Shown here: one piece after another, positions 2,531-51,766 of the stretch
Numbering within the stretch: the stretch's first letter is position 1
Layout of the letters: every line of letters begins with the position of its first letter
Assembly: GCA_041493605.1 (NCBI GenBank)
Contig: JBGPZD010000001.1
Coordinates: 5,936 to 69,935 of the forward strand
From: Candidatus Methylomirabilia bacterium
GTDB lineage: Bacteria > Methylomirabilota > Methylomirabilia > Rokubacteriales > CSP1-6
DNA: 64,000 bases
Direction: 5' to 3'
Program-made: the position numbers and the translations under genes
The notes under the pieces: generated by a model
Seen by the model: the letters and a program-made list of their open reading frames with translations, nothing else
What the model was told of the DNA's origin: nothing
The model's database searches: none

Positions 2531-6000
<3,470 letters not shown>

Positions 6001-24159: not shown

Positions 24160-24438
24160 ATGCTCAAGCGCGAGGAGTTGGCGGGCCGGATGGCGGAGGC
24201 CGTGGTCAAGCGGCTGGTTGGGCGCAAACTCGCCGAGGTGACGGACGAGAAGCGGGCCCGCGAGGTCGTCCAGCGCATCGTCGTCGAGAACCTCCTGGCC
24301 GAAGAGAAGCTCGACGCCGACTCGCGGACCCTCATGCAGGACCACGCCAAGGAGATCAAGGACTCGGCCTCCGACTACAAGCGCCTGTTCGCGCTCGTGA
24401 AGGCCAAGCTGGCCAAGGAGCGGGGGTTCACGCTGTGA
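24160..24438 (+). CDS. Small coiled-coil protein, DUF507-like (paralogue 1)
   Basis: 92-aa charged helical ORF (MLKREELAGRMAEAVVKRLVGRKLAEVTDEKRAREVVQRIVVENLLAEEKLD...). A similar paralogue follows immediately. Confidence 0.55.
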   Translation: MLKREELAGRMAEAVVKRLVGRKLAEVTDEKRAREVVQRIVVENLLAEEKLDADSRTLMQDHAKEIKDSASDYKRLFALVKAKLAKERGFTL

Positions 24439-24731
24439 TGCGCATGAGCCGCGAGCGCCTGTTCGCCCTGGCGGACCGCATCGTCGCCGACCTCACGGCC
24501 ACCGAGAGCGTCGCCTTCCGCGGCGCCGCGGACGACAAGGTCCACGGCCAGCTCCGGACCGAGATCTTCCGGGTCCTCGAGGACGAGTCCAAGCTCGAGG
24601 AAACCATCGACCAGGAGGTCCGGCGCACCCTCAGCACGTATTCGCGGCCGGCGCCCGAAGGGAGCGCCGAGTGGGAGCTCCTCTACCAGAAGACGCGCGA
24701 CGAAGTCTACCGCCGCAGGTTTCGGCTGTGA
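24435..24731 (+). CDS. Small coiled-coil protein, DUF507-like (paralogue 2)
   Basis: 98 aa, with the same charged helical pattern (RIVADLTATESVAF...VHGQLRTEIFRVLEDESKLEETIDQEVRRTL). ATGA overlap with the preceding ORF. Confidence 0.55.
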   Translation: MMRMSRERLFALADRIVADLTATESVAFRGAADDKVHGQLRTEIFRVLEDESKLEETIDQEVRRTLSTYSRPAPEGSAEWELLYQKTRDEVYRRRFRL

Positions 24732-27696: not shown

Positions 27697-28052
27697 GGGG
27701 GCGACTGGTTTCGACGGGGGTCAGTGACGCGTAGGCGGCATCCCGAGGTGCTCTCTCCTCGTAAAACTGGGGGCACGGTTATAGCTGCCGACAATCAGCT
27801 AGCCCTGGCGGCCTAACACCCGCCAGCGCCCTCCGGATCGGGTCAACGGGGTCCGGGTTCGGGCGTCATATTCCGGTGGCTGGCTCCGAACCCCGCTCTT
27901 GGGTGAGGGGCGAGATCTTCAAGGAGCTGGCTGCCCCGACAACCAGCCGGTTGGAGGGACGGGCGGCGAGAGCAGAAGAGAACCGGCTATGGATGTAGAA
28001 GCCTGCTGCTGAGGATTTCCGGACGTGGGTTCGATGCCCACCGCCTCCACCA
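27697..28052 (+). ncRNA. ssrA: Transfer-messenger RNA (tmRNA, ssrA)
   Basis: 5' end GGGGGCGACTGGTTTCGACGGGGG. 3' end GGACGTGGGTTCGATGCCCACCGCCTCCACCA, a tRNA-Ala-like T-arm with CCA. Internal tag ORF ...GCC GAC AAT CAG CTA GCC CTG GCG GCC TAA, giving (A)ADNQLALAA. Confidence 0.9.
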
Positions 28053-28057
28053 TTCCG

Positions 28058-28096
28058 AGGCCCGCCCGGTTCGCCGGCGCGGGCCTCGCGTTTTTC
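28058..28096 (+). terminator. Rho-independent terminator after tmRNA
   Basis: GC-rich hairpin GGCCCGCCCGG-TTCG-CCGGCGCGGGCC followed by TCGCGTTTTT. Confidence 0.6.
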
Positions 28097-28161
28097 CCTA
28101 AAAGCTTCGTCCCGACTCGCGCCGGTTGCTACAATGGCGGCTACCGCAGACGCGGGCCCCG

Positions 28162-29706
28162 ATGAGACGGACACAGGCGGCGGGACTGCTGATGGTGGCG
28201 GCGCTGGTGGGGTGGCTCCTCACCGCGGCCGACGGGGCGCGCCCGGACGCCTTTGAGCTCAAGGGGCGGTCGGGCAGCCTGGGTCAGGTCGCCCTCGTCG
28301 TCGTGGATGACGGCGCGTCCTACGTGCCGGCCGAGCGGCTGGCCGCGCTGCTCAAGGGCTCCTGGGCGGTGAAGGGAACGCGGGGCACGCTCACCGTCGC
28401 CAAGCGCAGCGCCCAGTTCGTCAAAAACCAGTCCCGCATCGTGATCCAGGGCCAGGCGATGACCCTCGACGCTCCCGCGCGCCTGGGGGTGGCGGGCTGG
28501 CTCATCCCCGAGAGCTTCCTCATCAAGGGGCTGGGCCGCCTGGCGCCGGGCATCACGGCCACCGCCGTCGCTGACGCCAAGCGGCCGCCATCGAAGACCG
28601 TGCACGCCCCGGTGGTCCTCGAGGAGCTGCGCTCCCGCTCCTATCCCTCCTTCACCCGCGTGGTGGTCGAGACCGGGGGGATGCTCGCCTACGCCGTGTT
28701 CTCGGGCCCCCAGGAGATCCGCGTCCGACTTCCCGGTCTCGTGCTCTCAGGCGCACGGACCGAAGCGCTCGGCGACGGCCTCGTCAAGGAGATCCGCCTC
28801 GAGCCGGCCGGCGCCGACGCGGTGCTGCGCGTGCTGCTCGAGGGCGCGGCGGGCGAGGTGAAGGACTCGGTGCTCCAGGATCCGTTCCGGCTGGTGCTCG
28901 ACATCTATCGGCCCCGGGAGCCCGGCGGCGGCGAGCGCGGTCGCGAGGGCATCCAGCCGCTGCGCCTCATCGTGCTCGACGCCGGCCACGGCGGCCACGA
29001 TCCGGGCGCCACCGGGCCCAGCGGCGTCATGGAGAAAGACGTCGTCCTGGACGTGACCAAGCGAGTCGCACGGCTGGCTGAGGACGGCCTGGGCGTCAAG
29101 ATCGCGCTTTCGCGGACCACGGATGTCTTCGTGCCGCTCCGTGACCGGACCAATTTCGCCAACAAGCTGCGCGCCGACCTCTTCGTGTCGATCCACGCCA
29201 ACGCCCACCCCCGCGCCTACTCCGAAGGCGTGGAAACCTACTTCCTCTCCTCGGAGGCCTCCGACAGCGAGGCGCGCCAGGTGGCCGCCATCGAGAACGA
29301 CGTGGTGCAGCTCGAGACGCCGGCCGCGCGCCAGAAGGGCGATGTGCTCAAGAGCATTCTCTGGGACCTGGCGCAGTCGGAGTTCCAGGCGGAATCGAGC
29401 TTCATGGCGGAGACGGTCCAGGACTCGATGACCCAATCGCTCCGCCTGGTCAACCGCGGCGTCAAGCAGGCGGGCTTCTACGTCCTGGGCGGCGCGGCGA
29501 TGCCGGCCATCCTGATCGAGGTGGGCTTCCTCACCAACCGCAAGGAGGAGCGAAAGCTGGCGACACCTGAGTATCGCGAGGCCGTGGCGCGCGCGATCTA
29601 CGCCGGGCTCGCCGAGTACAAGCGCCGCTACGACCAGCGGCTGCGCACGGCCCAGACGGTTCCGGCCCGGGCCGAGCCGGCTCCCCGGACCGACGCCGCC
29701 CGATGA
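28162..29706 (+). CDS. N-acetylmuramoyl-L-alanine amidase (AmiC-like, amidase_3 family)
   Basis: C-terminal catalytic domain [15 protein letters not shown] ... [10 protein letters not shown] ... [25 protein letters not shown]-terminal signal and AMIN-like region. Confidence 0.85.
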
Positions 29707-33029: not shown

Positions 33030-34253
33030 CTAGCCTCCGGTCTTCGAAGTGGGCGTCCCGGTCGGGGCCGGGTTGCCGTTGCCGTCGATGGCGCAGGCCG
33101 CGGCGCTCCCCTCCTTGTGGATGGAGAGGTCGGTGATGCTCGGGTTCTCGCCGCAGAGCGGGCACTTCGGATCGCGGCGCAGCTTGACCTCGCGGAAGCG
33201 CATGCCCAAGGCATCGTAGGTCAGGAGCCGCCCGATCAGCGGCTCGCCGATGCCCAACAGCACCTTGATGGCTTCCGTCGCCTGCACCACCCCGATCACT
33301 CCTGGGAGCACGCCCAGGACGCCGGCCTCGCTTCAGCTGGGGACCAGGCCCGGCGGCGGGGGGATGGGGTAGAGGCAGCGGTAGCACGGCCCCGCGTCGG
33401 GGGCGAAGACCGTGGCCATGCCCTCGAACTGGAAGATGGAGCCGTGGACATTGGTCTTGCCCGCCAGGTAGCAGGCGTCGTTCATCAGGTAGCGGGTGTC
33501 GAAATTGTCCGACCCGTCCACCACGAGGTCGTAGTCCTTGATGATGTCCATCACGTTGTCCACGTCGATGCGCATGGGCAGCCGGACGACGTTCACGTCC
33601 GGGTTGAGGGCCCGGATCATCTCGGCGCCGGACTCGACCTTGGACCGTCCCACGTTGGCCGTAGTGTGGAGGATCTGGCGCTGGAGGTTGGAGACGTCCA
33701 CGATGTCGCCGTCCATCAGCCCGATCGTGCCGACGCCGGTGGCCGCGAGGTACACCGCGGTCGGCGAGCCCAGGCCGCCCGCCCCGATGAGGAGCACCTT
33801 CGAACGCAGGAGCTTGCGTTGTCCCTTCTCGCCCACTTGGTTCAGCAGGAAGTGCCGGCTGTAACGCTGGATCTGCTCGGTGGTGAGCGGGCGGTCCTTG
33901 ACGACCGGCAGGCCCGACTGGGCCCACTTCTGGAATCCACCCTGGAGGTTGACGACATTGGTGTAGCCGAGATCGCGGAGCGCCTTGGCCGCCAGCACGG
34001 AGCGCAGCCCGGTCTGGCAGTAGAGCACGATGGGCGTCGCCGGGTCCGTCACGGCCGCGCCGATGCGGAACTCGAGGAAGCCGCGGCTGATATTGGTCGC
34101 CGGCTCGATGAAGCCGTCGCGGTATTCGTCGGGATCGCGCACGTCTACGACCACGACCGGCTCGCCGGCCTCCAGGCGCTTTCTGAGTTCGGCCGGCCCC
34201 TGCTCGGGCACGACTTGCCGGGCCTCAGTCAGCATTTCCTTGAGCGTCTTCAT
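33030..34253 (-). CDS. Rhodanese-ThiF/MoeB (E1-like) sulfur-carrier adenylyltransferase with an in-frame TGA at 33333..33335. Candidate selenoprotein, otherwise a pseudogene.
   Basis: N-terminal rhodanese (LYCQTGLRS). ThiF/MoeB fold (LLIGAGGLGSP; CYRCLYP...PPPPGLVPS-[TGA]-SEAGVLGVLPGVIG...CPLCGE). The two track ORFs 33333..34253 and 33030..33311 are in the same frame, separated only by this TGA. The TGA replaces the conserved Cys of the xCAEAGV motif. Confidence 0.7.
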
Positions 34254-50635: not shown

Positions 50636-51766
50636 TCAGGACCTCAGCGCTTCGCGCAGCTCCCGCGTGAGGGCTTCGACGGTGCCGCGAGTGCCACCCG
50701 CCAGCTTGGCCTTCCACTCCTTCTCGGTTTCGAAGCGGCGGTCCTTGAGCCGCTCGCCCCAAGGCTTGACGGCGTCGCGGATCGCGTGGAAGTCGAAGGC
50801 GTCGCGCTTGAGCTCCCGGGCGCGGGCCATCACGTCCGGGGCCACGCGGATGAAGGCGCGCAATGCGGCGCCAGTCTTGATCGAGTACTTCCGTCCCGCC
50901 CAAGCCGTCGGGAAGGCGGCGGCCACCGCCTTCATGTAGCTCAGGAAGAAGCGCTTGGCGTTCTGTCGCAGCTCGTTCATGCGCGCGCCGCCGCCGATCT
51001 TCTCCACCGCTTCGAGGAAATCCACGATCTCCTCGGCCAGCGGCGCCTGCGAGACGCGCCCGCGGCCGGTGCCCAGCATCTTGATGTCGCCGTGCAGCGG
51101 CGAGGTCTCGTCCTCGTTGAGCGAGCGGATCACGTCGTGGGCCAGGGCCTGATTGGGGTCGGGGTAGAGCTTGCGGCCCGCGAGGCTCACGATGTGCGAT
51201 GGGTTCAGGCGCGTGTGCTTGGCGTTGATGGTGACGAAGAGCTCCACGATCTGCCGCGCGTCGAGCCGGTCGAAAAGGACGGCGGGCACTTCGATCCCCA
51301 GGTTCTCGCCGGCCTGGGTCAGCGCGTGGAGGGCCAGCAGCCGGTGCTGGCCGTCGAGCACGCGGAGCACGCCGTGCTCCTCCGGGATCTGCAGCAGGCC
51401 CAGGTCGTGCTGGCTCGCCATGGGCGTGAAGGTGAAGCGCTTTTCCGAGGTGATGATGACGGCGCCCGGGATGGCCGGCAGCGTGCCCGCGTCTTTGCAA
51501 TCCCGGTAGTAGCCGACGAGCTCGTCGATCTTGCGCCGGATCACCGGCCGCTGGTAGGCGGTCTCGCTCTCGCCGATGCGCTTCTCGAGGGCCTCCCAGT
51601 TCACGCGCGCCCGGGTCGAGCGCTTCGGCTTGGCGGGTCCGGCCTCGGCGCCCCCGTAGCCCAGCACCTCGAATTTGACGAGGCGGTCGATGTCCTTGGC
51701 CGAGAAGGAGGCCTGGAAGAACTCGACTCCGAACTGCTTCACGCGATGCGCGGGGACCGTGATCAT
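50636..51766 (-). CDS. DGQHR-domain protein (DndB/DpdB-like, ParB/Srx-fold superfamily)
   Basis: 376 aa with the literal DGQHR motif (VLDGQHRLLALHAL) and a DndB-like FVTINAKHTRLNPSHIVSL region. GGAGG RBS. Stop is adjacent to and convergent with greA. No dndACDE or dpdA is nearby. Confidence 0.7.
   Translation of the reverse strand: MITVPAHRVKQFGVEFFQASFSAKDIDRLVKFEVLGYGGAEAGPAKPKRSTRARVNWEALEKRIGESETAYQRPVIRRKIDELVGYYRDCKDAGTLPAIPGAVIITSEKRFTFTPMASQHDLGLLQIPEEHGVLRVLDGQHRLLALHALTQAGENLGIEVPAVLFDRLDARQIVELFVTINAKHTRLNPSHIVSLAGRKLYPDPNQALAHDVIRSLNEDETSPLHGDIKMLGTGRGRVSQAPLAEEIVDFLEAVEKIGGGARMNELRQNAKRFFLSYMKAVAAAFPTAWAGRKYSIKTGAALRAFIRVAPDVMARARELKRDAFDFHAIRDAVKPWGERLKDRRFETEKEWKAKLAGGTRGTVEALTRELREALRS

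Follow-up and report, generated by a model that had tools for sequence, protein, structure and literature searches.

A gene in a Candidatus Methylomirabilia bacterium that is interrupted by a single in-frame TGA is very probably intact and encodes a selenoprotein, namely a MoeB/ThiF-type adenylyltransferase with an N-terminal rhodanese domain, in which the UGA at codon 307 would be read as selenocysteine (Sec). The gene was found in a stretch of 64,000 nucleotides of contig JBGPZD010000001.1 (assembly GCA_041493605.1), here termed the window, to which coordinates refer unless another locus is named. An earlier note on this DNA had proposed the gene as a candidate selenoprotein, and this reading is now supported by the conservation of the UGA, by selection on the frame downstream of it, by the pairing of Sec and Cys forms among relatives and by a SECIS-like element. 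The presence of the same TGA in 77 of 80 genomes, together with five consecutive codons lacking any synonymous variation, is far beyond what would be expected by chance.

Two open reading frames (ORFs) on the minus strand, 33333..34253 (306 aa) and 33030..33311 (93 aa), share one frame, and the TGA at 33335..33333 is the sole break between them, as the earlier note had stated and as both the ORF list and a continuous translation confirm. Read from 34253 to 33030, the frame comprises 407 codons, including Sec307, followed by a TAG stop. The joined product of 407 residues contains, in order, LYCQTGLRS (including Cys79), CYRC at residues 290-293, PGLVPS-(TGA307)-SEAGVLGVLPG and CPLC at residues 364-367, and the region after the UGA holds peptides unique to it, such as SEAGVLGVLPGVIGVVQATEAIK. 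The features of the gene are:

33030..34253, minus strand: complete rhodanese-MoeB gene (ORFs, translation, Pfam, NCBIfam NF006444)
33333..33335, minus strand: in-frame UGA, codon 307, predicted to be read as selenocysteine (orthologue codons, homologue Cys, structure-based alignment)
33918..34196, minus strand: N-terminal rhodanese domain, residues 20-112 (Pfam PF00581, E = 2e-20)
34019-34017, minus strand: codon of the rhodanese active-site Cys79, CQTGLRS (sequence reading)
33159..33863, minus strand: ThiF/MoeB adenylation domain, residues 131-365 (Pfam PF00899, E = 3e-83)
33375-33386 and 33153-33164, minus strand: zinc-type CxxC motifs of the adenylation domain

For the Pfam search of the joined product, Cys was placed at residue 307; the PF00899 match runs uninterrupted across this codon, and an alignment to E. 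coli MoeB (1JW9) spans residues 123-369. The rhodanese, the adenylation fold and both CxxC motifs that had been read from the letters alone are thus all recovered, the first two as Pfam matches and the last as CYRC and CPLC. The protein is an N-terminal rhodanese fused to MoeB, of the NF006444/PRK08762 type: it scores 531.6 bits against the NF006444 (PRK08762 MoeB) cut-off of 449, matching model positions 3-376 of 387. It falls below the cut-offs of the MoeZ model NF005902 (399.6 against 647), the ThiF equivalog TIGR02356 (245.9 against 275.25) and the MoeB model TIGR02355.

The conservation of the break was assessed in the 80 best-matching loci of an orthologue scan using one genome per species. 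These came mostly from metagenome-assembled genomes (MAGs) labelled as Rokubacteria or Methylomirabilota, with a few under other bin labels. At codon 307, 77 of these species-level loci have TGA and the other three TGC, the alternation between TGA and Cys codons for which an alignment of orthologues had been suggested as a check. A protein search likewise returned two classes of relative. One consisted of dozens of 306-residue products that share 87-100% identity with the N-terminal part of the window protein, the other of homologues some 400 residues long with 75-83% identity. The best 120 database matches include 72 products of 306 aa that end in GLVPS and 47 full-length proteins, all 47 of which carry Cys at the aligned position. 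A lone in-frame stop in one assembly would normally point to a pseudogene, or to an error of assembly or base calling, but the same TGA recurs in 77 independent assemblies from many projects, the downstream dN/dS equals that upstream, and no further stops or frameshifts are found. Such an explanation is vanishingly improbable, and in the specific forms of an assembly error or a private pseudogene it is ruled out by the TGA in 77 of 80 loci and by selection on both sides of the codon.

In a crude neighbour-joining tree, in which the internal branches are short, about nine Cys forms fall within the Sec clade and 17 outside it, a pattern that suggests repeated Sec/Cys exchange. In each of two MAGs (L004/L080 and L051/L078), rhodanese-MoeB genes with TGA and with TGC lie on separate contigs; unless the bins are mixed, a single genome thus seems to hold both Sec and Cys paralogues.

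In each of 81 sequences, those of the window and the 80 loci, another 83-109 codons follow the TGA before the frame closes, uninterrupted by stops or frameshifts. Estimates of dN/dS, made by the Nei-Gojobori method over 400 random pairs, were 0.171 for the rhodanese part, 0.134 for the ThiF part upstream of the TGA and 0.148 for the part downstream, or 0.139 for the latter once the hairpin described below was left out. The close match between the two sides of the codon (0.148 and 0.134), with the frame open throughout, runs counter to the truncation or decay among orthologues that the earlier note had named as grounds for rejecting its proposal; it indicates in-frame translation of the downstream part, under constraint like that on the rest of the gene. 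The codon preceding the TGA switches between TCC and AGC, both encoding Ser, and therefore appears to be under selection at the protein level. The true terminators of the 80 orthologues are TGA in 42 cases, TAG in 36 and TAA in two, which shows that TGA keeps its usual role as a stop here too; it terminates many genes in the window as well, and a reassignment of TGA in the genetic code was rejected on both counts.

Continuity of the frame bears also on whether the gene might truly be split, with a 306-aa fragment and a second one of about 93 aa, started independently at a GTG (33311), assembling non-covalently. The GTG start lies only seven codons past the TGA, and public gene callers do give two products: as the earlier note had anticipated of standard callers, the JGI annotation of a contig with an identical 306-aa product divides the locus into genes of 306 and 89 aa, both of which match ThiF. 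Yet the seven codons from the TGA to the GTG, which would be untranslated under this model, encode a peptide (SEAGVLG) that is invariant in the protein. Similarly, the break falls always exactly at the Cys codon and, across the 80 loci, is always TGA and never TAA or TAG, while the Pfam ThiF match is continuous across it. A genuine division into two genes is accordingly considered extremely unlikely.

The second line of evidence for Sec insertion is a hairpin within the coding sequence shortly after the UGA, the elements of which are:

33301..33318, minus strand: conserved SECIS-like core hairpin (zero synonymous entropy at codons 312-316, and CCA317)
33318-33313, 33312-33307 and 33306-33301, minus strand: 5' arm CCUGGG, loop CGUGCU and 3' arm CCCAGG of the core
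33319..33300, minus strand: full 7-bp hairpin, including an extra U33319-A33300 pair present in this window's gene
33292..33325, minus strand: possible extended SECIS, tentative, with CCGG (33325-33322) pairing with UCGG (33295-33292) (RNAalifold consensus)

The hairpin UCCUGGG-CGUGCU-CCCAGGA at 33319..33300, beginning 13 nt past the UGA, was reported from the sequence of this gene in the earlier note. Its position stands, but only 33 of 59 distinct orthologues have its seventh pair (U-A), which is not a conserved trait, so that the conserved core is one of 6 bp, located 14-31 nt downstream of UGA307. The core has a small apical loop, 20 nt past the UGA, that includes both G and U; a small G/U-containing apical loop is a feature cited for bacterial SECIS elements by Zhang et al. 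(PMC1088965), and the suggestion that the spacing and loop fit such an element is upheld in this respect. In comparison with known bacterial SECIS elements, such as that of E. coli fdhF, the hairpin is alike in being a stem-loop in the coding sequence soon after the UGA with a small G/U apical loop, and unlike in that its stem is short (6 bp) and has no evident bulged U.

Selection on this hairpin was evident in the choice of synonymous codons among 76 TGA-bearing genes, two with a second in-frame TGA (L042 and L064) having been set aside. Synonymous-choice entropy averaged 1.10 bits over 162 conserved codons of four-fold or higher degeneracy, and was zero at exactly five of these, codons 312-316 (GTC CTG GGC GTG CTC). 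Codon 317 is CCA in 73 of the 76 genes and CCG in three, the latter turning a U-A pair into a U.G wobble; CCA is a rare Pro codon here, nearby Pro codons being mostly CCG or CCC. Synonymous choice is unrestricted at the flanking codons (GCN at 310 and GGN at 311, 318 and 321). The control was a set of seven distinct DNAs of the Cys form, which specify the same peptide, GVLGVLPG, through GTG or GTC, CTC or CTG, GGC or GGT, CTG, and CCG or CCC, codons that cannot form the hairpin, which is absent from all seven. Since the Cys forms encode the same peptide without the hairpin, the constraint acts on the RNA, and in the TGA forms only.

Pairing holds in 94% of cells of a 78-sequence alignment, whereas sliding the partner lowers the figure to 24-66%; seven of 11 pairs never vary and three show one-sided, G.U-compatible changes. 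No pair is altered on both sides in this alignment, an absence of compensatory changes attributable to the invariance of the hairpin pairs. The lower 4-bp stem (33325-33322 with 33295-33292) also shows one-sided, G.U-compatible changes and no compensatory ones, and is plausible but tentative. When the folding check proposed in the earlier note was run, the hairpin was backed by conservation and not by stability: the 71-nt region is no more stable than shuffled sequences (z = +1.04), a result that proves nothing either way in a genome of 68% G+C. The case for the hairpin is hence an evolutionary one, built on synonymous invariance, rather than a thermodynamic one.

Read-through of UGA307 might nevertheless not involve selenium, with Trp, Cys or Arg inserted by a near-cognate tRNA and the hairpin serving as a generic stimulator of read-through or pausing. 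The downstream frame would likewise stay under selection in that case, the hairpin is conserved without covariation, and no Sec machinery was seen in the 64-kb window: neither ARAGORN nor Rfam found a tRNA-Sec there, and Pfam searches found no SelA, SelB or SelD among its roughly 45 annotated genes. Nor was a tRNA-Sec detected by ARAGORN or Rfam in loci L001-L090. Against this, in orthologues and paralogues alike, a Cys codon is the sole alternative to the TGA; the site is that of a catalytic Cys and is Sec in a described selenoprotein family; the hairpin has the spacing and G/U loop of a SECIS; and the lineage is reported to use Sec. For instance, a 2026 review describes a Methylomirabilota MAG predicted to have 63 selenoproteins, and a separate paper reports Sec-type hydrogenases in Methylomirabilota. 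Read-through of this kind is judged very unlikely, and insertion of Sec at UGA307 by SelB and tRNA-Sec, steered by the hairpin 14-31 nt downstream, is the predicted mechanism of decoding.

No other in-frame TGA with coding signal on both sides was found in the window, three further matches being ordinary gene junctions. The left third of the window (62-20484) is the neighbourhood of the chromosomal replication origin, with gyrA and gyrB (identified by eye), a RecF/SMC-type ATPase gene, dnaA, rnpA, yidC, parA and mnmA, and then the F-type ATP synthase operon. A standard tmRNA lies directly after smpB at 27697-28052 on the plus strand (ARAGORN; 158.7 bits with Rfam). ARAGORN also called a second, permuted 'tmRNA*' at 27956-28535 on the plus strand, overlapping the start of an amidase gene; this lacks Rfam support and is probably a false call. 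Two small overlapping plus-strand ORFs, 24160-24438 and 24435-24731, match the two halves of DUF507 (profile positions 6-93 and 95-180 of 182), and may represent either a natural two-part family or a split gene. A gene at 50636-51766 on the minus strand, next to one for an HlyD-type membrane-fusion protein, encodes 376 aa with a match to DndB (PF14072, E = 3e-15), a family associated with DNA-sulfur modification; no other dnd genes were seen nearby.

Residue 307 aligns, in comparison with solved structures, with the Cys of TCVEAGV in E. coli MoeB, NCRTAGV in E. coli ThiF and SCGEAGI in Chaetomium Uba4, bearing out the earlier proposal that the TGA falls at the conserved Cys of ThiF/MoeB/MOCS3 homologues. 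The aligned residues of the two E. coli proteins are Cys187 in MoeB and Cys184 in ThiF. Cys184 of ThiF forms an acyl-disulfide with the thiocarboxylate of ThiS. Cys187 of E. coli MoeB was reportedly found to be dispensable by Leimkuhler et al. in 2001, and the catalytic role of the position is for this reason argued from ThiF and Uba4 rather than from MoeB. The aligned Uba4 residue would be the crossover-loop Cys202, as this is the sole Cys between the first CxxC and GEAG; in the Chaetomium protein, Cys202 forms a thioester with Urm1 that is then resolved by the rhodanese persulfide (Pabis et al., PMC7527816). Judged by these alignments, residue 307 occupies the position of the catalytic Cys in the E1 crossover loop.

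By analogy, the enzyme would adenylate the C-terminal glycine of a carrier resembling ThiS, MoaD or Urm1. The selenolate of Sec307 could then attack the acyl-adenylate to give an acyl-selenoester, comparable to the thioester on Cys202 of Uba4, or alternatively the product might be an acyl selenosulfide, comparable to the acyl-disulfide on Cys184 of ThiF. A persulfide on the rhodanese Cys79 would resolve the intermediate, releasing a thiocarboxylated carrier. In such a scheme Sec would be expected to outperform Cys both as nucleophile and as leaving group, and to resist irreversible oxidation.

The pathway served may be that of molybdenum cofactor (Moco), thiamin, Cys or tRNA thiolation. Divergent dTDP-sugar genes upstream are syntenic in 71 of the 80 loci and the downstream neighbours vary; no conserved ThiS/MoaD-like sulfur-carrier gene is adjacent in the 80 loci. 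A MoaB/MogA-like gene, identified by eye, lies about 2.5 kb downstream on the opposite strand in 18 of the 80 loci (for example at 4743-5498, minus strand, of locus L072), a weak hint that the enzyme may serve Moco synthesis.

Selenoproteins of the MoeB family were first predicted in 2005, from 11 Sargasso Sea sequences (Zhang, Fomenko & Gladyshev, PMC1088965), and recur in the Global Ocean Sampling (GOS) data of 2008 (PMC2398784) and in catalogues of 2022 and 2026. The supplement to the first of these studies gives the protein of AACY01471790 as GPCYRCLYSEPPPAALVPSuAVAGVLGVLPGVVG, and its DNA as TGA GCA GTT GCA GGA GTC CTA GGC GTG CTC CCG GGA (PMC1088965); GOS reads agree in having the same Sec position and a CGUGCU loop (PMC2398784). 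The window protein is 60% identical to the marine selenoprotein over 101 aligned residues around Sec, with the identical Sec position (CYRCLY...LVPS-U-xxAGVLGVLPG) and the same loop at an equal distance from the UGA. It differs in having an N-terminal rhodanese, that of the marine proteins being C-terminal in the MoeZ/Uba4 order; two positions of the hairpin that are Watson-Crick pairs in the window are a mismatch and a G.U pair in the marine sequence; and the form is found here in a soil and groundwater phylum, rather than in marine hosts, and is near-fixed (77 of the 80 best-matching genomes).

The gene shares with the MoeB selenoprotein family its adenylation domain, Sec/Cys pairing, Sec position and SECIS-like loop, and it is best regarded as a rediscovery of that known family, the new elements being the N-terminal order of the rhodanese and the near-fixation in a soil phylum. 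NF006444/PRK08762 proteins have the same domain order, but the family name bears no selenoprotein label and the full-length relatives recovered carry Cys rather than Sec. With Uba4, MOCS3 and MoeZ the protein would share a two-centre relay, consisting of a crossover-loop Cys, to which residue 307 is aligned, and a rhodanese Cys; it is nevertheless not of their type, having the rhodanese at the N-terminus in a reversed domain order, an NF005902 (MoeZ) score under the cut-off, and Sec in place of Cys. Likewise, E. coli ThiF and MoeB have the adenylation fold, both CxxC motifs and the conserved Cys before (E/T)AGV that aligns with U307, but neither a rhodanese nor Sec. We know of no biochemical characterisation of the MoeB selenoprotein family.

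A gene for selenophosphate synthetase, selD, was found beside two of the loci. On a 926-kb Rokubacteria contig (L035), selD at 1903-2952 ends 48 nt before a Sec-form gene at 3001-4224 on the same strand; since the two adjoin, at least one Sec-form genome encodes selenophosphate synthetase. At a second locus (L083), selD at 2794-3843 (NF002098, 527 bits against a cut-off of 299) is convergent to a Cys-form homologue, and the two SelD proteins are 78% identical. No general linkage to selD was found in a search for SelD homologues, which gave three other selD contexts with unrelated neighbourhoods.

Two of the orthologues, L042 (3001-4233) and L064, have a second in-frame TGA at codon 79, that of the rhodanese active-site Cys (LY-U-QTGLRS); the window gene has TGC there. 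A metagenome scan for the codon-79 TGA and the 29 nt downstream gave six further contigs (L093-L098), all encoding distinct proteins, and all three of those that reach codon 307 have TGA there too. This two-Sec subfamily thus comprises eight independent contigs with distinct proteins. The consensus fold is a 7-bp hairpin (CCGGUCG/GUCC/UGGCCGG) 14 nt past UGA79, for whose conservation only L042 and L064 are unbiased evidence, as the six scan matches were selected by the pattern; codons 83-89 vary freely in the 79 genes whose codon 79 encodes Cys. Because a 2026 selenoprotein catalogue gives MoeB a single Sec, the two-Sec rhodanese-MoeB fusion may be undescribed.

The adjacency of selD at L035 and L083, the subfamily with both U79 and U307, and the MoaB/MogA-like gene at 18 loci together raised the idea that the rhodanese-MoeB of Rokubacteria relays selenium rather than sulfur alone. 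In that case the rhodanese would bear a perselenide at its active centre, and the carrier protein made at the E1 centre would be selenocarboxylated, or of a mixed sulfur/selenium type, and could feed a selenium-containing cofactor or nucleoside. This is a speculative proposal, with little likelihood of being correct.

For the reading of the gene as a selenoprotein, the consequences are partly ones of annotation and partly ones of enzymology. Public annotation cuts the gene at 306 residues and leaves a separate 89-residue ThiF fragment, affecting dozens of database entries, and recognition of the Sec codon would repair a core sulfur-transfer enzyme across a whole soil phylum. The Sec form is near-fixed across Rokubacteria, with Cys paralogues seemingly in the same genomes, and would also offer a natural system for probing the role of a selenoester or selenosulfide in the activation of sulfur carriers.
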